This document shows, piece after piece, positions 2,247 to 9,316 of a stretch of 9,316 nt of DNA. The notes under the pieces are model-generated. The model saw only the letters and a program-made list of their open reading frames with translations. It did no database searches and had not been told where the DNA came from. Source of the DNA: a virus (lineage: Duplodnaviria; Heunggongvirae; Uroviricota; Caudoviricetes). Within the stretch, counting starts at the first letter, position 1. Each line of letters begins with the position of its first letter. The DNA lies in the IMG/VR virus record IMGVR_UViG_2695420699_000004, one strand, 5' to 3'. Made by a program: the position numbers and the translations under genes.

Positions 2247-2990
2247 ATGACAGAGACAGAATCAGCGATTCTGGCGCACGCCCGGCGATGTGCGCCAGCG
2301 GAGTCGTGCGGCTTCGTGGTGAGAACACCGGAGGGGGAAAGATATTTTCCCTGCGTGAATATCTCCGGTGAGCCGGAGGCGTATTTCCGGATGTCGCCGG
2401 AGGACTGGCTGCGGGCAGAGATGCAGGGTGAGATTGTGGCGCTGGTCCACAGCCACCCCGGTGGTCTGCCCTGGCTGAGTGAGACCGACCGGCGGCTGCA
2501 GGTGCAGAGTGATTTGCCGTGGTGGCTGGTTTGCCGGGGGGCGATTCACAAGTTCCGCTGTGTGCCACATCTTTCCGGGCGGCGCTTTGAGCACGGGGTG
2601 ACGGACTGTTACACGCTGTTCCGGGATGCTTACCATCTGGCGGGGATTGAGATGCCGGATTTTCATCGCGAGGATGACTGGTGGCGTCACGGTCAGAATC
2701 TCTATCTGGATAATCTGGAGGCCACAGGGCTGTATCAGGTGCCGTTGTCATCAGCACAACCGGGCGATGTGCTGCTGTGCTGTTTTGGTTCATCGGTGCC
2801 GAATCATGCCGCCATTTACTGTGGTGACAGCGAGCTGCTGCACCATATTCCTGAACAACTGAGCAAACGAGAGAGGTACACCGACAAATGGCAGCGACGC
2901 ACACACTCCCTCTGGCGTCACCGGGAATGGCACGCATCTGCCTTTACGGGGATTTGCAACGATTTGGCCGCCGCATCGACCTTCGTGTGA
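2247..2990 (+). CDS. K: Tail assembly protein K, JAB/MPN metalloprotease domain + NlpC/P60 cysteine peptidase domain (247 aa as the long ORF; alternative internal start at 2391 gives 199 aa)
   Basis: Contains a complete JAMM motif H-x-H-x7-S-x2-D (VHSHPGGLPWLSETD, about nt 2449-2490), then an NlpC/P60-like Cys (GVTDCYTLF) and downstream His residues (NHAAIYCG...LLHHIP). 3' end overlaps the I start by 103 nt in another frame. The long ORF has a weak SD; the internal ATG 2391 is preceded by GGAGG (2375-2379). Confidence 0.85.
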   Translation: MTETESAILAHARRCAPAESCGFVVRTPEGERYFPCVNISGEPEAYFRMSPEDWLRAEMQGEIVALVHSHPGGLPWLSETDRRLQVQSDLPWWLVCRGAIHKFRCVPHLSGRRFEHGVTDCYTLFRDAYHLAGIEMPDFHREDDWWRHGQNLYLDNLEATGLYQVPLSSAQPGDVLLCCFGSSVPNHAAIYCGDSELLHHIPEQLSKRERYTDKWQRRTHSLWRHREWHASAFTGICNDLAAASTFV

Positions 2991-3559
2991 AAACGGGGGC
3001 TGAAGCCATCCGCGCACTGGCCACACAGCTCCCGGCGTTTCGTCAGAAACTGAGCGACGGCTGGTATCAGGTACGGATTGCCGGGCGGGACGTCAGCACG
3101 TCCGGGTTAACGGCGCAGTTACATGAGACTCTGCCTGACGGCGCTGTGATTCATATTGTTCCCAGCGTCGCCGGGGCCAAGTCAGGGGGCGTATTCCAGA
3201 TTGTTCTGGGGGCTGCCGCCATTGCCGGATCATTCTTTACTGCCGGAGCCACCCTTGCAGCATGGGGGGCAGCCATTGGGGCCGGTGGTATGACCGGCAT
3301 CCTGTTTTCTCTCGGTGCCAGTATGGTGCTCGGTGGTGTGGCGCAGATGCTGGCACCGAAAGCCAGAACTCCCCGTACACAGACAACGGATAACGGTAAG
3401 CAGAACACCTATTTCTCCTCACTGGATAACATGGTTGCCCAGGGCAATGTTCTGCCTGTTCTGTACGGTGAAATGCGCGTGGGGTCACGTGTGGTTTCTC
3501 AGGAGATCAGCACGGCAGACGAAGGGGATGGTGGTCAGGTTGTGGTGATTGGTCGCTGA
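2888..3559 (+). CDS. I: Tail assembly protein I (223 aa), N-terminal ubiquitin-like domain ending in Gly-Gly, C-terminal Gly-rich hydrophobic region
   Basis: 223-aa ORF starting inside the K 3' end (different frame). N-terminal ~100 aa end in ...VAGAKSGG, immediately followed by a glycine-zipper-like hydrophobic stretch (VFQIVLGAAAIAGSFFTAGATLAAWGAAIGAGGMTGILFSLGASMVLGG). Position between K and J matches lambda gpI. Confidence 0.9.
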   Translation: MAATHTLPLASPGMARICLYGDLQRFGRRIDLRVKTGAEAIRALATQLPAFRQKLSDGWYQVRIAGRDVSTSGLTAQLHETLPDGAVIHIVPSVAGAKSGGVFQIVLGAAAIAGSFFTAGATLAAWGAAIGAGGMTGILFSLGASMVLGGVAQMLAPKARTPRTQTTDNGKQNTYFSSLDNMVAQGNVLPVLYGEMRVGSRVVSQEISTADEGDGGQVVVIGR

Positions 3560-3619: not shown

Positions 3620-6600
3620 ATGGGTAAAGGCAGCAGTAAGGGGCATACCCCGCGCGAAGCGAAGGACAACCTGAAGTCCACGCAGCTGCTGAGTGTGATC
3701 GATGCCATCAGCGAAGGGCCGATTGAAGGTCCGGTGGATGGATTAAAAAGCGTGCTGCTGAACAGTACGCCGGTGCTGGACAGTGAGGGGAATACCAATA
3801 TCTCCGGTGTCACGGTGGTGTTCCGGGCCGGTGAGCAGGAGCAGACACCGCCGGAGGGATTTGAATCCTCCGGCTCCGAGACGGTGCTCGGTACGGAAGT
3901 GAAATATGACACGCCGATCACCCGCACCATCACGTCTGCAAATATCGACCGTCTGCGCTTTACCTTCGGTGTGCAGGCACTGGTGGAAACCACCTCAAAA
4001 GGGGACCGGAATCCGTCGGAAGTCCGCCTGCTGGTTCAGATACAACGTAACGGTGGCTGGGTGACGGAAAAAGACATCACCATTAAGGGCAAAACCACCT
4101 CGCAGTATCTGGCCTCGGTGGTGGTGGATAACCTGCCGCCGCGCCCGTTTAATATCCGGATGCGCAGGATGACGCCGGACAGCACCACAGACCAGCTGCA
4201 GAACAAAACGCTCTGGTCGTCATACACCGAAATCATCGATGTGAAACAGTGCTACCCGAACACGGCACTGGTTGGCGTACAGGTGGACTCAGAGCAGTTC
4301 GGCAGTCAGCAGGTGAGCCGTAATTATCATCTGCGCGGGCGTATTCTGCAGGTGCCGTCGAACTATAACCCGCAGACGCGGCAATACAGCGGTATCTGGG
4401 ACGGAACGTTTAAGCCAGCATACAGCAATAACATGGCCTGGTGTCTGTGGGATATGCTGACCCATCCACGCTACGGCATGGGGAAACGTCTTGGTGCGGC
4501 GGATGTGGACAAATGGGCGCTGTATGTCATCGGCCAGTACTGCGACCAGTCAGTGCCGGACGGCTTTGGCGGCACGGAGCCGCGCATCACCTGTAATGCG
4601 TACCTGACCACACAGCGCAAGGCGTGGGATGTGCTCAGTGATTTCTGCTCGGCGATGCGCTGTATGCCGATATGGAACGGGCAGACGCTGACGTTCGTGC
4701 AGGACCGACCATCAGATAAGGTGTGGACCTATAACCGCAGTAATGTGGTGATGCCGGATGATGGCGCGCCGTTCCGCTACAGCTTTAGCGCCCTGAAAGA
4801 CCGCCATAATGCCGTTGAGGTGAACTGGATTGACCCGAACAACGGCTGGGAGACGGCGACAGAGCTTGTGGAGGATACGCAGGCCATTGCCCGTTACGGT
4901 CGTAACGTCACGAAGATGGATGCTTTTGGCTGTACCAGCCGGGGGCAGGCACACCGCGCCGGGCTGTGGCTGATTAAAACAGAACTGCTGGAAACGCAGA
5001 CCGTGGACTTCTGCGTGGGCGCAGAAGGGCTTCGCCATGTGCCGGGCGATGTCATTGAAATCTGTGATGATGACTATGCCGGTATCAGCACCGGTGGTCG
5101 TGTGCTGGCGGTGAACAGCCAGACCCGGACGCTGACGCTCGACCGTGAAATCACGCTGCCATCCTCCGGTACCACGCTGATAAGCCTGGTTGACGGAAGT
5201 GGCAATCCGGTCAGCGTGGAGGTTCAGTCCGTCACCGACGGCGTGAAGGTAAAAGTGAGCCGTGTTCCTGACGGTGTTGCTGAATACAGCGTATGGGGGC
5301 TGAAGCTGCCGACGCTGCGCCAGCGCCTGTTCCGCTGCGTGAGTATCCGTGAGAATGACGACGGCACGTATGCCATCACCGCTGTGCAGCATGTGCCGGA
5401 GAAAGAGGCCATCGTGGATAACGGGGCGCACTTTGACGGCGACCAGAGCGGCACGGTGAATGGTGTCACGCCGCCAGCAGTGCAGCACCTGACCGCAGAA
5501 GTCACCGCAGACAGCGGGGAATACCAGGTGCTGGCGCGCTGGGACACGCCGAAGGTGGTGAAGGGGGGGAGCTTTATGCTTCGCCTGACCGTGGCAGCGG
5601 ATGACGGCAGTGAGCGGCTGGTCAGCACGGCCCGGACGACGGAAACCACATACCGCTTCAGGCAGCTGGCGTTGGGGCGTTACACGCTGACAGTCCGGGC
5701 GGTAAATGCCCGGGGACAGCAGGGCGATCCGGCGTCGGTATCGTTCCGGATTGCCGCACCGGCAGCGCCGTCACAGATTGAGCTGACGCCGGGCTATTTT
5801 CAGATAACTGCCACGCCGCATCTTGCGGTTTATGATCCGACGGTACAGTTTGAGTTCTGGTTCTCGGAAACGCGGATTACCGATATCAGGCAGGTTGAAA
5901 CCACAGCCCGCTACCTTGGCACGGGGCTGTACTGGATAGCCGCCAGTATCAATATCAAACCGGGCCATGATTATTACTTTTATGTTCGCAGTGTGAACAC
6001 CGTTGGCAAATCGGCATTCGTGGAGGCCGTCGGTCGGGCGAGCGATGATGCGGAAGGTTACCTGGATTTTTTCAAAGGCAAGATAACCGAATCTCATCTC
6101 GGCAAGGAGCTGCTGGAAAAAGTCGATCTGACGGAGGATAACGCCAGCAGACTGGAGGAGTTTTCGAAAGAGTGGAAGGACGCTAACGATAAATGGAATG
6201 CCATGTGGGGCGTCAAAATTGAGCAGACCAAAGACGGCAAACATTATGTCGCGGGTATTGGCCTCAGCATGGAGGACACGGAAGAAGGCAAGCTGAGCCA
6301 GTTTCTGGTTGCCGCTAACCGTATCGCGTTTATTGACCCGGCAAACGGGAATGAAACGCCGATGTTTGTGGCGCAGGGCAATCAGATATTCATGAACGAC
6401 GTGTTCCTGAAGCGCCTGACGGCTCCCACCATTACCAGTGGTGGCAGTCCTCCGGTATTTTCCCTGACATCAGACGGAAAGCTGACCGCTAAAAATGCGG
6501 ATATCAGTGGCAGTGTGAATGCGAACTCCGGGACGCTCAACAACGTCACGGTAAATGAAAACTGTACGATTAAGGGCATGCTGGAGGCGACTCAGGTCAG

Positions 6601-7033
6601 AGGTGACTTCGTTAAAGCTGTATCCAAATCATTTCCGAAACAGGCTGGTACGTGGGGTAACACGGAAACACCAAACGGGACGGTTACAGTCACCATCAGC
6701 GATGATCATAACTTTGACCGTCAAATCATTATTCCGCCCATTATCTTTAACGGAATAGCGTATAGCTATCCGGGAAGTGGTAATAACCCGGGAGGTACAA
6801 GTTACACGGGTTATGGTTTTGAAGTTCGCAAAAACGGTGTATTAATCGCATCCAGAGAAACTAAAGGGGCCATTCCCGGTAGCTACAGTGCGGTTATTGA
6901 TATGCCGAGTGGCAGGGGAAGCGTCACTCTGGAGTTTAAGGTTTTCCATAAAGGCAATCAGTGGGCAGGTAATATCACCGACTGTACGGTGATTGTGACC
7001 AAAAAAGCCGCTTCCGGCATCAGTATTCGTTGA
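3620..7033 (+). CDS. J: Host-specificity / central tail fibre protein J (1137 aa)
   Basis: 1137-aa ORF with SD GGAG 8 nt upstream of ATG 3620. Size, position after I, and fibronectin-III-like beta-rich repeats in the middle (e.g. ...[27 protein letters not shown]...) are characteristic of lambda-type gpJ. The C-terminal ~150 aa are compositionally distinct (see findings). Confidence 0.95.
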
Positions 7034-7102: not shown

Positions 7103-7702
7103 ATGCGTAAAGTTTGTGCCGCAATTTTGTCCGCAGCCATTTGTCTGGCCGTATCCGGTGCGCCTGCATGGGCGTCTGAACATCAGTCCACGCTGAGCGC
7201 GGGGTATCTTCATGCCTCGACCAACGTTCCCGGCAGCGATGATCTGAACGGGATTAACGTGAAATACCGTTATGAGTTTACGGACACGCTGGGAATGGTG
7301 ACGTCATTCAGCTATGCAGGAGACAAGAATCGCCAGCTTACCCGTTACAGCGATACCCGCTGGCATGAAGATTCCGTGCGTAACCGCTGGTTCAGCGTGA
7401 TGGCGGGGCCGTCTGTGCGCGTGAATGAATGGTTCAGCGCGTATGCGATGGCGGGTATGGCTTACAGCCGTGTGTCGACTTTCTCCGGGGATTATCTTCG
7501 CGTAACTGACAACAAGGGGAAAACGCACGACGTGCTGACCGGAAGTGATGACGGTCGCCACAGCAACACGTCTCTGGCGTGGGGAGCTGGCGTGCAGTTT
7601 AACCCGACCGAATCCGTGGCCATTGATATTGCTTATGAAGGCTCCGGCAGTGGTGACTGGCGCACTGACGGTTTCATCGTGGGTGTCGGTTATAAGTTCT
7701 GA
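7103..7702 (+). CDS. lom: Lom/Ail-family outer-membrane beta-barrel protein (199 aa), lysogenic-conversion cassette
   Basis: SD GAGAGG (7092-7097) 5 nt before ATG 7103. N-terminal signal peptide ([24 protein letters not shown]|SE), alternating amphipathic beta-strand pattern and C-terminal aromatic ...VGVGYKF typical of 8-stranded OMP barrels of the Ail/Lom/OmpX family. Position between J and stf as in lambda. Confidence 0.9.
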
Positions 7703-7766: not shown

Positions 7767-9316
7767 ATGGCAGTAAAGATTTCAGGTGTACTGAAAGACG
7801 GCACAGGAAAACCGGTAGAGAACTGCACCATTCAACTGAAAGCCAGACGTAACAGCGCCACGGTGGTGGTGAACACGGTGGCCTCAGAAAATCCGGATGA
7901 AGCCGGTCGTTACAGCATGGACGTTGAGTACGGTCAGTACAGCGTTATTCTGTTGGTGGAGGGATTTCCTCCGTCACATGCCGGGACCATCACCGTGTAT
8001 GAAGATTCTCAACCCGGTACGCTGAATGATTTTCTCGGTGCCATGTCGGAGGATGACGTCCGGCCGGAGGCACTGCGCCGTTTTGAACTGATGGTGGAAG
8101 AGGTGGCGCGTCACGCAGAGGAGGCGAAGAAGAATGCCGGAGAGGCAGAGACGTCCGCGAGGAATGCCGGCATATCAGCCAGTCAGGCAGAAAAGAGCGC
8201 TGCAAATGCTGACACTTCAGCAGGGGAGGCATCGGAGTCAGCCCGGCAGGCGGCAGAAAGTGCAGCCTCAGCAAAGCAGTCAGAGGATGCGTCCTCGTCC
8301 TCGGCTTCTGCGGCCGCTCAAAAAGCCAGTGAGTCATCACAAAGTGCAGCAGAAGCTGAATTGTCAAGAAAGACGGCAGAAAGTGCAGCCGGTAATGCAG
8401 CCAGGGATGCAACGACCGCAACAGAAAAAGCCCGGGAGTCAGCAGAAAGCGCACAGTCAGCGGAACAAAGCAGGATAGCGGCGGAAGAAGCCGTAAACCG
8501 AATCCCCACAGTGGTGGGGCCACCCGGGCCAAAGGGAGAACCGGGGCCCGCGGGTCCTCAGGGGCCGAAGGGTGATAAGGGAGAGCGCGGTGACACCGGC
8601 CCTGTCGGGGCAACCGGCGAACGGGGACCGGCAGGTGATGCTGGTCCGGCAGGCCCGCAGGGGCCGAAAGGCGACAGGGGAGAGCGGGGAGAGACCGGTC
8701 TGACGGGAAATGCAGGTCCACAGGGTCCAAAGGGAGATACCGGTGCGGCAGGCCCGAAGAGCGCTGCAAATGCTGACACTTCAGCAGGGGAGGCATCGGA
8801 GTCAGCCCGGCAGGCGGCAGAAAGTGCAGCCGCTGCAAAGCAGTCAGAGGAGGCGTCCTCGTCCTCGGCTTCTGCGGCCGCTCAAAAAGCCAGTGAGTCA
8901 TCACAAAGTGCAGCAGAAGCTGAATTGTCAAGAAAGACGGCAGAAAGTGCAGCCGGTAATGCATCCAGGGATGCAACGACCGCAGCAGAAAAAGCCCGGG
9001 AGTCAGCAGAAAGCGCACAGTCAGCGGAACAAAGCAGGATAGCGGCGGAAGACGCCGTAAACCGAATCCCCACCGTGGTGGGACCTCCCGGGCCAAAGGG
9101 AGAACCGGGGCCCGCGGGTCCTCAGGGGCCGAAGGGAGATAAAGGAGAGCGTGGCGACACCGGTCCTGTCGGGGCAACCGGTGAGCGGGGACCGGCAGGT
9201 GATGCTGGTCCGGCAGGCCCGCAGGGGCCGAAAGGCGACAGGGGAGAGCGGGGAGAGACCGGTCTGACGGGAAATGCAGGTCCACAGGGTCCAAAGGGAG
9301 ATACCGGTGCGGCAGG
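7767..9316 (+). CDS. stf: Side tail fibre protein (3'-partial; at least 516 codons, no stop in window): lambda-Stf-like N-terminal domain + Ala/Ser/Glu-rich helical segment + collagen-like Gly-X-Y repeats
   Basis: Not in the supplied ORF track because it has no stop inside the window. I translated it by hand from ATG 7767 (frame 0) and it is open to 9316. N-terminus MAVKISGVLKDGTGKPVENCTIQLKARRNS... matches my recollection of the lambda Stf N-terminus. Downstream: low-complexity A/S/E/Q-rich sequence, then 27 consecutive G-X-Y triplets (GPPGPKGEPGPAGPQGPKGDKGERGDTGPVGATGERGPAGDAGPAGPQGPKGDRGERGETGLTGNAGPQGPKGDTGAAGPK) at 8517-8759, and again from 9081 to the window end. G-run SD (GGGGGG 7758-7763) upstream. 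Confidence 0.85.
   Translation, partial: MAVKISGVLKDGTGKPVENCTIQLKARRNSATVVVNTVASENPDEAGRYSMDVEYGQYSVILLVEGFPPSHAGTITVYEDSQPGTLNDFLGAMSEDDVRPEALRRFELMVEEVARHAEEAKKNAGEAETSARNAGISASQAEKSAANADTSAGEASESARQAAESAASAKQSEDASSSSASAAAQKASESSQSAAEAELSRKTAESAAGNAARDATTATEKARESAESAQSAEQSRIAAEEAVNRIPTVVGPPGPKGEPGPAGPQGPKGDKGERGDTGPVGATGERGPAGDAGPAGPQGPKGDRGERGETGLTGNAGPQGPKGDTGAAGPKSAANADTSAGEASESARQAAESAAAAKQSEEASSSSASAAAQKASESSQSAAEAELSRKTAESAAGNASRDATTAAEKARESAESAQSAEQSRIAAEDAVNRIPTVVGPPGPKGEPGPAGPQGPKGDKGERGDTGPVGATGERGPAGDAGPAGPQGPKGDRGERGETGLTGNAGPQGPKGDTGAA
8193..8756. repeat. Tandem direct repeat, copy 1 of a 564-bp (188-codon) in-frame module within stf
   Basis: Sequence from 8193 (aagagcgctgcaaatgctgacacttcagcagggg...) recurs from 8757 with the same phase. 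I count about 16 mismatches over about 560 aligned bp by eye (about 97% identity). Confidence 0.9.
8757..9316. repeat. Tandem direct repeat, copy 2 (truncated by window end) of the 564-bp stf module
   Basis: Direct repeat of 8193-8756 at a period of exactly 564 bp; the window ends 4 bp before the copy would be complete, so further copies downstream cannot be excluded. Confidence 0.9.

Follow-up and report, generated by a model that had tools for sequence, protein, structure and literature searches.

Genes K and I of a lambda-type phage tail module encode a JAB/MPN+ and NlpC/P60 protein and a tail-tip precursor with a ubiquitin-like domain

The window analyzed in this study is a stretch of 9,316 nucleotides from a virus of the class Caudoviricetes (IMG/VR record IMGVR_UViG_2695420699_000004). 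It contains a lambda-type tail module composed of H', M, L, K, I, J, lom, and stf'. Each of the seven long ORFs on the plus strand had a Pfam match to a tail protein or to Lom. The gene order around I is K-I-J, and K and I are ordinary tail-tip assembly genes of a lambda-type phage. A preliminary description of the sequence had given coordinates for K and I, and these agree exactly with the two ORFs. The features of the two genes are listed below, with the evidence for each in brackets.

2247..2990, plus strand: gene K, tail-tip assembly protein of 247 aa, JAB/MPN+ followed by NlpC/P60 (ORF; Pfam PF14464 and PF00877)
2256..2540, plus strand: JAB/MPN+ (JAMM) metalloprotease domain, K residues 4-98 (Pfam Prok-JAB; phmmer 2kks; Foldseek)
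2301..2303, plus strand: E19 of K, the upstream catalytic Glu of the JAMM motif, in E-S-C-G (conserved in 120/120)
2448..2489, plus strand: JAMM zinc-site motif H68-S-H70-x7-S78-x2-D81 (HSHPGGLPWLSETD), K residues 68-81 (conservation)
2577..2918, plus strand: NlpC/P60 (C40) papain-like domain, K residues 111-224 (Pfam NLPC_P60; Foldseek)
2607..2609, 2805..2807, and 2841..2846, plus strand: putative triad of K, C121, H187, and H199/H200, respectively (conservation)
2888..2990, plus strand: overlap of K and I in two frames, 103 nt (ORF coordinates)
2888..3559, plus strand: gene I, precursor of the tail-tip assembly/plug protein, 223 aa (ORF; phrog_32)
2927..3178, plus strand: ubiquitin-like (Ubl) beta-grasp domain, I residues 14-97, ending P92-S-V-A-G96-A97 (Pfam; AF2; Foldseek)
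3173..3190, plus strand: candidate processing tail of I, G96-A97-K98-S99-G100-G101 (conservation)
3188..3352, plus strand: Gly/Ala-rich hydrophobic segment, I residues 101-155 (composition; AF2)
3287..3556, plus strand: C-terminal structural ('plug') domain, I residues 134-223 (matches to PDB 8iyk and 9e7m)

The K/I DNA was 97-99.7% identical to the K/I genes of lambdoid phages, and on viral contigs the related loci were only relatives of 89-98% identity, too close to serve for judging conservation. K matched phrog_30 ('minor tail protein') at 1.6e-162. A homologue of K was found in 1760 phage records, 1722 of which cover at least 80% of K, and K was followed by I in 12/12 of the diverse loci fetched. 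If I starts at M14 (nt 2927), the K/I overlap shrinks to 64 nt and the product of gene I to 210 aa. The C-terminal extension of K is also kept in phages without a K/I overlap. We considered whether database K-I fusions (P0009, P0014, P0017, P0029, P0310, and others) point to natural fusion or programmed frameshifting. They were rejected because they came from clusters of one to three sequences with junctions resembling deletions or frameshifts. Of six further ORFs that share sequence with K and I, four lie on the minus strand and two in different plus-strand frames. None of these had a Pfam match, and they were treated as shadows of the coding frames.

Among the seven long plus-strand ORFs, Pfam detected neither E1/ThiF nor UBC. 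The E1- and E2-like enzymes of a Ubl conjugation system (E1/E2/Ubl/DUB) are missing, and the K/I pair serves processing rather than conjugation of the Bil or CBASS Cap2/Cap3 type. It can also be proposed that counter-defence is the primary function of the JAB domain of K, which would act as a deubiquitinase stripping Bil-type ubiquitin-like conjugates of the host from the central tail fibre J. We regard this as extremely improbable. The Bil reading explains neither the presence of a phage-encoded Ubl, found fused to I in all the diverse loci that we examined, nor why assembly requires K when the host lacks Bil. In addition, Bil strongly protects against the siphophages SECphi27 and SECphi4, both of which have lambda-like tail genes.

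Residues 4-98 of K matched Pfam PF14464 Prok-JAB (E=2.2e-14; 53.8 bits, cut-off 25). The domain was also matched by phmmer to the JAB protein 2kks, whose E-A-C-G aligns with E19-S-C-G of K. The fold was compared in a model of P0367, a protein of 428 aa in which residues 1-219 of K are joined to I from residue 7 via a frameshift in the overlap. The alignment for this model was anchored with 12 further fusion proteins. JAB, NlpC/P60, and Ubl were all confident in the model, and S99-G101 of I had a pLDDT below 50, too low to be informative about the tail. Foldseek matched the K part to the JAMM deubiquitinases PfJAMM1, CSN5, Rpn11, and AMSH. Conservation was determined in 120 K homologues of 28-98% identity: H68, H70, and D81 were each found in 120/120 and S78 in 119/120. 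The catalytic residues were also invariant or nearly so across 13 diverse phages. K has both the MPN fold by family profile and the full motif E ... H-x-H-x7-S-x2-D. The preliminary description had reported an intact JAMM motif in K, and we find it at residues 68-81, with E19 in addition upstream. The JAB domain is a putative zinc-dependent protease, predicted to cut after the C-terminal tail of a Ubl.

The second domain of K belongs to the NlpC/P60 family (MEROPS C40). Residues 111-224 matched PF00877 over the whole profile (positions 1-105 of 105; E=1.8e-12; 47.6 bits, cut-off 23), so that the profile search suggested earlier for K recovered MPN/JAB and NlpC/P60 alike. The papain-like Cys/His set that had been noted consists of D120-C121, where D120 precedes the Cys, H187, and H199-H200, in the order Cys-His-(His/polar). 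In the K homologues, C121, H187, and H200 were each conserved in 120/120 and H199 in 119/120. Since the triad is invariant, this domain is almost certainly catalytic too. Its part of the fusion model was matched by Foldseek to MepS, C. difficile hydrolases, 4hpe, and 9ubf.

The N-terminal part of I is ubiquitin-like. Residues 14-97 matched Pfam PF06805 Lambda_tail_I (E=3.6e-28; 98.3 bits, cut-off 23.8). In the AF2 model of I, residues 11-90 had a pLDDT of 91-97 and followed the order beta-beta-alpha-beta-beta-beta. The top PDB matches of this beta-grasp in Foldseek were SAMP1, CysO, MoaD, Urm1, and ubiquitin, with target-normalised TM scores of 0.68-0.75 to SAMP1, CysO, and MoaD. The AF2 model and Foldseek together answer the question, raised beforehand, of a beta-grasp fold at the N-terminus of I. 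I, which lies between K and J, has the profile, the beta-grasp, the conserved Gly, and the Gly-rich linker with TAPI-C of the TAPI family (PF06805).

The N-terminal part of I had been described as ending precisely with SGG. This motif is present (S99-G100-G101, nt 3182-3190), but the conserved end of the Ubl is G96-A97. The Pfam match stops at A97. In 55 diverse I homologues, G96 was conserved in 53/55, Ala or Ser at position 97 in 51/55, G100 in 31/55, and G101 in 50/55. In hhalign, G96 was aligned to the penultimate Gly of MoaD (E=0.014) and of ThiS (E=0.11); these alignments are short and each is weak alone, and their registers agree with each other. The corresponding comparison with ubiquitin did not yield a usable alignment. 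When the Ubl profile was compared with PDB sequences, a MoaD-related protein was matched at E=0.65, and this alignment ended at A97. Because of the conservation and the MoaD/ThiS alignment, we place the likely homologous terminus of the Ubl at G96-A97, four residues upstream of SGG. We therefore lean towards a predicted cut between A97 and K98, after G96-A97, over one between G101 and V102, after G100-G101. Taking G96-A97 rather than Gly-Gly as the Ubl end matters to the designers of cleavage-site mutants.

The tail is followed by the hydrophobic Gly-rich part of I that was pointed out after SGG. Of its 55 residues (101-155), 12 are Gly and 13 are Ala. The two Kyte-Doolittle peaks of I lie near residues 110-115 and 139-147, and AF2 placed helices at residues 100-131 and 136-155. 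In cryo-EM of the lambda virion, gpI is resolved at residues 134/135-223 only, and residues 98-133 are without density. The virion models of gpI (135-223 or 134-222) form a trimer in the tail-tip lumen, gripping the C-terminus of gpH. Residues 134-223 of I differ from the resolved lambda gpI by one substitution, T164I. Mass spectrometry of the virion gave a single gpI peptide with 9.87% coverage, a value that corresponds uniquely to the 22-residue C-terminal tryptic peptide, 202-223.

The reading of K/I as a ubiquitin-like processing pair is not new: such processing was predicted in 2006 and has recently been reported experimentally. For TAPK and TAPI, Iyer, Burroughs, and Aravind predicted that the JAB domain of the former frees the Ubl of the latter, with the cut at the C-terminal glycine of the Ubl (PMC1779556), so the attribution to comparative analyses in the preliminary description was correct. 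Its remark that the arrangement is little tested experimentally is outdated, given the virion cryo-EM, a 2025 conference report, and the maturation of F-pyocin PA0640. The one statement that names K as the protease is the conference summary of the 2025 talk by A. Davidson, according to which a 'deubiquitinating domain' of gpK cleaves the Ubl of gpI, and gpK cuts it only once gpI engages the tip complex. The literature search gave no full paper by the Davidson laboratory on the cleavage of gpI by gpK. In the F-pyocin, the N-terminal region of PA0640 is missing in mature particles and present in stalled assembly mutants, and deletion of PA0639 results in tip-less tubes (bioRxiv 10.64898/2026.02.24.707460). 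Profiles, folds, and conserved catalytic residues in the window support the same reading of K/I, and the motifs noted in the two genes are not chance occurrences.

Another question is which domain of K makes the cut. The NlpC/P60 domain, and not JAB, could remove the Ubl of I, or both could cut, with a second cut by NlpC/P60 within the Gly-rich linker or beyond it. The C121/H187/H200 triad and the JAMM site are equally invariant, most eukaryotic DUBs have a papain fold, and the NlpC/P60 option was raised by Iyer et al. (PMC1779556). The virion density of gpI begins at 134/135, approximately 35 residues past the Ubl tail, which fits a second cut; however, the missing density at 98-133 may be mere disorder. 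We consider the option unlikely. The conference summary credits the 'deubiquitinating domain' of gpK with the cleavage, and other prokaryotic systems repeatedly pair JAB with a Ubl in the absence of NlpC/P60 (PMC1779556). Furthermore, phrog_35166 matches K 3-83 and I 13-210 and looks like a JAB-I fusion without NlpC/P60. It is slightly more doubtful still that the NlpC/P60 triad serves a second proteolytic event in tail maturation, for example a cut in I upstream of residue 134. If true, K would be a dual-specificity maturation protease timing two steps of tip assembly.

The NlpC/P60 domain can also be read in another way. Its nearest structures are murein hydrolases (MepS and the C. difficile autolysins), and a weak NCBIfam match of K is named 'putative phage cell wall peptidase, NlpC/P60 family'. 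K would then be mainly a peptidoglycan endopeptidase for murein crossing, and the Ubl of I would have a passive role, in solubility or as a chaperone, before host proteases remove it. The behavior of PA0640 agrees with this, as it loses its N-terminal region to unnamed host proteases when expressed alone in E. coli (bioRxiv 10.64898/2026.02.24.707460). Nevertheless, we believe that this role is very improbable. gpK was undetected in lambda virions by mass spectrometry, and PA0639 was undetected in F-pyocin particles. On this basis, K cannot act at infection. Tip assembly itself needs K, and the murein model leaves the invariant JAMM site and the pairing with a Ubl unexplained.

We believe that the JAB domain of gpK removes the Ubl of gpI during tip assembly, leaving the C-terminal part of I in the virion. 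Our probability for this explanation as a whole is approximately 0.8. It builds on the domain identities, the fold, and the intact catalytic residues of K and I. The removal of the N-terminal region and the requirement for K are supported by the literature. The I precursor would consist of the N-terminal Ubl (residues ~14-97), a short Gly tail with two hydrophobic Gly/Ala-rich helices, and the C-terminal domain, which, as a trimer bound to both gpJ and the C-terminus of the tape measure, would plug the tail-tip lumen. K would be a non-structural assembly enzyme, recognising the Ubl of I as a deubiquitinase does ubiquitin. We infer the roles of the individual residues of its JAB domain: H68, H70, and D81 as zinc ligands, E19 as the general base, and S78 for the oxyanion. 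The exact bond would lie in the tail between G96 and G101, to be cut after the docking of I into the tip complex of J and L. K and the released Ubl would then depart, and the virion would retain only the C-terminal part of I. Until that point, the Ubl probably acts like a chaperone for the hydrophobic, membrane-active part of I, keeping it in solution, and probably also serves as a checkpoint, blocking the next assembly step till the tip is complete.

Phage lambda gpK/gpI (TAPK/TAPI) are the same genes, in the same order H-M-L-K-I-J-lom-stf and with the same K/I overlap. I is identical to lambda gpI (PDB 8iyk, 8iyl, 8k35, and 8xcg) at 221/223 residues, with the differences S93R and T164I, and residues 49-247 of K differ from lambda gpK at 11/199. 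In RefSeq/GenBank, lambda K is annotated as 199 aa, whereas K here is an intact frame of 247 aa. The reference K is shorter because one base is missing compared with the present sequence and with independently sequenced lambda records, and the first 48 codons of K, E19 included, are therefore out of frame. K should be annotated as 247 aa with JAB, as the 199-aa 'C40 family peptidase' hides this domain. At least one review analyzed the truncated lambda K only. The result from the window is confirmatory, showing intact and near-identical copies of a described system.

Prokaryotic JAMM proteases act on ThiS/MoaD-type beta-grasp proteins at the C-terminal Gly tail. PfJAMM1-SAMP2 (PDB 5lda), HvJAMM1/SAMP, Mec+/CysO, and QbsD/QbsE have the same small MPN+ protease (E...HxHx7Sx2D) and a beta-grasp partner, and such pairs were the top structural matches for both K and I. 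Unlike these pairs, K/I is accompanied by no E1, E2, or sulfur-transfer genes among the ORFs of the window searched with Pfam. In I, the Ubl forms the N-terminal part of a structural precursor, whereas in the JAMM-Ubl pairs it is a free modifier. Homologues of I usually have Ala or Ser in place of the final Gly, unlike Ubl of the SAMP/CysO type, and K has an additional NlpC/P60 domain, unlike proteases of the PfJAMM1 type. K/I is a prokaryotic pair of ubiquitin fold and JAMM protease that works without conjugation machinery.

In eukaryotic fusions of ubiquitin to ribosomal proteins, the N-terminal ubiquitin aids handling and assembly in cis and is removed by DUBs. The logic of K/I resembles that of these precursors, but the protease family, substrates, and context differ, and we claim direct homology only for the beta-grasp and JAMM folds. 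The phage T5 pb3 plug domain corresponds in position and role to the C-terminal domain of gpI, being a trimeric plug that closes the tail-tip lumen. It differs in being an insertion in a hub protein, without a Ubl or a K-type protease. The F-pyocin is a tailocin and not a phage, and the preprint names no protease. Its gpI homologue PA0640 is visible in the particle at residues 127-200 alone, and its gpK homologue PA0639 does not occur in particles, and the tip does not form without it. PDB 25vf_9, a gpI homologue of 200 aa that may be PA0640, matched I at E=5e-18. The K/I pair may act as an assembly checkpoint for the tails of siphophages and F-type tailocins.

The DNA holds a contiguous lambda-type tail module on the + strand, in lambda's own gene order, and all of the ORFs from H to lom (7/7) matched the corresponding Pfam family. 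The features were as follows:

30-1217, +, C-terminal 395 codons of the tape-measure gene H (ORF; Pfam Tape_meas_lam_C)
1214-1543, +, M (ORF; Pfam Phage_min_tail)
1543-2241, +, L (ORF; Pfam Phage_tail_L)
2247-2990, +, K, 247 aa (ORF; Pfam Prok-JAB and NLPC_P60)
2888-3559, +, I, 223 aa (ORF; Pfam Lambda_tail_I)
3620-7033, +, J (ORF; Pfam GpJ domains)
7103-7702, +, lom (ORF; Pfam Ail_Lom)
from 7767, leaving the window at its end (9316), +, start of a side-tail-fibre gene (ORF)

The K-I stretch was 97-99.7% identical at the DNA level to many lambdoid phages, and the related loci on viral contigs were all near-identical to the query. The tape-measure part (30-1217) contains a Gly-rich stretch, GSIGSAIGGAVGGGASASGG...GGFTGTGG; the cut of lambda gpH to gpH* falls within this stretch, and no protease was assigned to it as of a 2025 paper (PMC12617516). 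The side-tail-fibre-like ORF (7767-9316, +), beginning MAVKISGVLKDG..., contains a direct repeat in two near-identical copies (8193-8492 and 8757-9056; 98% identity, 564 nt spacing), each encoding an Ala/Ser/Glu-rich stretch that leads into a collagen-like G-x-y run. Of the 1550-nt query, the Stx-phage tail fibre genes that matched best covered only 990 nt, so they seem to be one repeat copy short. A minus-strand Pro-rich ORF (7990-9294, 434 aa) is the antisense shadow of this gene.

The preliminary description had read K and I as a ubiquitin-like processing pair. The JAMM string that it placed in K was present (H68-S-H70-PGGLPWL-S78-ET-D81, nt 2448-2489), with the upstream catalytic Glu at E19 in E19-S-C-G, and so was the NlpC/P60 set (D120-C121, H187, H199-H200). 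When K was aligned across 13 phages with widely differing hosts (28-52% identity; Mannheimia, Ralstonia, Burkholderia, Moraxella, Serratia, Vibrio, Pseudomonas, T1-like phages and a cyanophage among them), E19, H68, H70, S78, D81, C121, H187 and H200 were invariant. These eight residues and H199 were each kept in 119-120 of 120 homologues. Given this invariance and the Pfam E-values (Prok-JAB 2e-14 and NLPC_P60 2e-12 in K; Lambda_tail_I 4e-28 in I), the features of K and I are far beyond chance. The NlpC/P60 triad is conserved as strictly as the JAMM site, so this domain is very probably catalytic too. A K homologue was found in 1760 phage records, and an I homologue lay downstream of K in all 12 diverse loci compared. 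In 4/12 loci (Mannheimia 535AP2, HK544, Vibrio Len and Pseudomonas phiAH14a; L002, L008, L009 and L010), one to three unrelated genes stood between K and I, among them small hypothetical ORFs, an anti-repressor-like gene on the opposite strand and a lipoprotein. The junction thus seems to tolerate extra genes.

The lambda reference (J02459/NC_001416) is one base short near window position 2381 (K codon 45; GGAGGCGTATTTCC vs GGAGGC-TATTTCC), at ~1268 of the lambda locus L001 or ~14267 of NC_001416. As a result, K is annotated there as 199 aa starting at the M49 equivalent, without the N-terminal JAB part and its catalytic Glu, and this form alone was analysed in a 2020 review. Independent lambda records (KT232076, LC730321, PV340536, DE3, lambda imm21 and imm434) have 195 nt, not 194, over that stretch, which suggests that the 1982 reference has an error or a private variant. 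The K and I genes, read in different frames, share 103 nt (2888-2990). In many homologues and database annotations I starts at the M14 equivalent (nt 2927), as in P0012 (210 aa, 5268 member sequences), and the overlap would then be 64 nt; the 2888 start has a GAGG 11 nt upstream, the 2927 start only a weak GGGA. Mannheimia, mEp021 and Serratia phages all conserve the last 20 residues of K, which form the overlap, even without a K-I overlap in the Mannheimia and Serratia loci.

The beta-grasp fold proposed for the I N-terminus was borne out. The AlphaFold2 model, built with 55 diverse homologues as input, had pLDDT 91-97 over residues 11-90 and the beta-grasp order of elements (E14-19, E29-33, H37-47, E60-64, E87-92), followed by two long helices of lower confidence (100-131 and 136-155). 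Its best PDB matches were SAMP1, CysO, MoaD, Urm1, archaeal ubiquitin, SUMO and ubiquitin. In the database K-I fusion protein P0367, both K domains were confidently modelled; the JAB part best matched PfJAMM1 (alone and with SAMP2), CSN5, Rpn11 and AMSH, and the NlpC/P60 part MepS and C. difficile enzymes. No gpK-type structure was among the PDB sequence or structural matches.

The ubiquitin-like domain (Ubl) had been said to end in Gly-Gly. S99-G100-G101 is indeed present (nt 3182-3190), followed by a 55-residue Gly/Ala-rich hydrophobic stretch, but the end conserved in the family is G96-A97. Among 55 diverse full-length homologues, P92 and G108 were kept in all, G96 in 53, G101 in 50 and G100 in only 31, and residue 97 was Ala in 44, Ser in 7 and Gly in 2. 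The family motif is P-x3-G-[AS]-[KG]-x(1-4)-G-hydrophobic. I of phage mEp021 has a plain Gly-Gly at 96-97 and nothing comparable four residues further on. The Pfam domain stops at A97, as does a profile match in the PDB to a MoaD-related protein. In weak-scoring profile comparisons, 'PDGAVIHIVPSVAG96' of I fell on MoaD '...TDGDEVAFFPPVTG80' and ThiS '...QDGDQILLFQVIAG65' in concordant registers, which equates G96 with the penultimate and A97 with the last Gly of the sulfur carriers. Together, conservation, the Pfam end and these registers indicate G96-A97 as the true end of the Ubl. The K98-S99-G100-G101 that follows resembles a flexible, basic stretch leading into the first hydrophobic helix. 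We lean towards the bond after G96-A97 as the candidate cut; a cut at G100-G101 is possible.

Published work already linked the two proteins. The conserved C-terminal Gly of the Ubl and the combination of JAB and NlpC/P60 in K were described by Iyer, Burroughs & Aravind (2006, PMC1779556), who predicted that JAB releases the Ubl at this Gly and that NlpC/P60 might take part. In lambda cryo-EM, gpI is resolved only over 135-223 (PMC10721106) or 134-222 (PMC12617516), as a trimeric plug in the tip lumen holding the gpH C-terminus. Virion mass spectrometry found one gpI peptide (9.87% coverage; PMC10721106), a coverage that by our computation is matched by the 22-residue C-terminal tryptic peptide alone, even though several good tryptic peptides exist in the Ubl. 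Tail assembly needs gpK (PMC12617516), and virions have no detectable gpK (PMC10721106). [quoted passage not shown] Since K is absent from lambda and pyocin particles, it is unlikely to be a virion murein hydrolase. Hor et al. speculated that K is a deubiquitinase acting against the anti-phage system Bil, which leaves both the phage-encoded Ubl and the assembly requirement unexplained. It is possible that NlpC/P60 instead of JAB cuts I or adds a second cut, as gpI density begins only at residue 134; however, a conference report (October 2025, A. Davidson talk) names the deubiquitinating domain of gpK as what cleaves the gpI Ubl, and only once gpI has engaged the tip complex, and the family phrog_35166 resembles a JAB-I fusion without NlpC/P60. 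Another maturation cut by the NlpC/P60 domain, such as gpH to gpH*, is improbable.

Many chimeric K-I, L-K, L-I or internally duplicated proteins occur in close relatives (P0009, P0013, P0014, P0017, P0029, P0310, P0367 and others). Those listed come from clusters of 1-3 sequences and are joined at short repeats or within the K/I overlap; we rejected them as natural fusions, since decaying prophages or faulty assembly seem the likelier source. True fusions may be present in the families phrog_28576 (K+I) and phrog_35166 (JAB+I, no NlpC/P60). The highly repetitive P0169 (2783 aa, from the representative search) gave 23 separate matches at 42% identity to gpI residues ~10-63 (for example 'FCTFGDFENLSRRMDLKVFADAIRASIREQL' vs 'ICLYGDLQRFGRRIDLRVKTGAEAIRAL') and has the appearance of an ORF running through satellite-type repeat DNA.

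The domain identities, intact conserved catalytic sites, beta-grasp fold and synteny observed here, and the reported loss of the N-terminal part of I, requirement for K and absence of K from particles, make cleavage of I by the JAB domain the most likely mechanism. We infer the individual residue roles, the exact bond and a chaperone or checkpoint role. I would be made as a precursor, with the Ubl keeping its hydrophobic, membrane-active part manageable and holding back the following assembly step. After the I C-terminal domain has docked on J and L, JAB would bind the Ubl in the way deubiquitinases bind ubiquitin and hydrolyse its tail. The Ubl and K would then depart, leaving a tip able to take up the tape measure and tube.

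No E1 or E2 gene was found among the window ORFs checked by Pfam, including those overlapping K and I, which makes this a processing pair rather than a conjugation system. The pair has been described before, and all that the window contributes is another well-preserved copy: K and I are those of lambda, with 2 residues differing in gpI and 11 differences over residues 49-247 of K. Its mode of action is that of archaeal and bacterial JAMM-Ubl pairs, and its logic resembles that of eukaryotic ubiquitin-fusion precursors.
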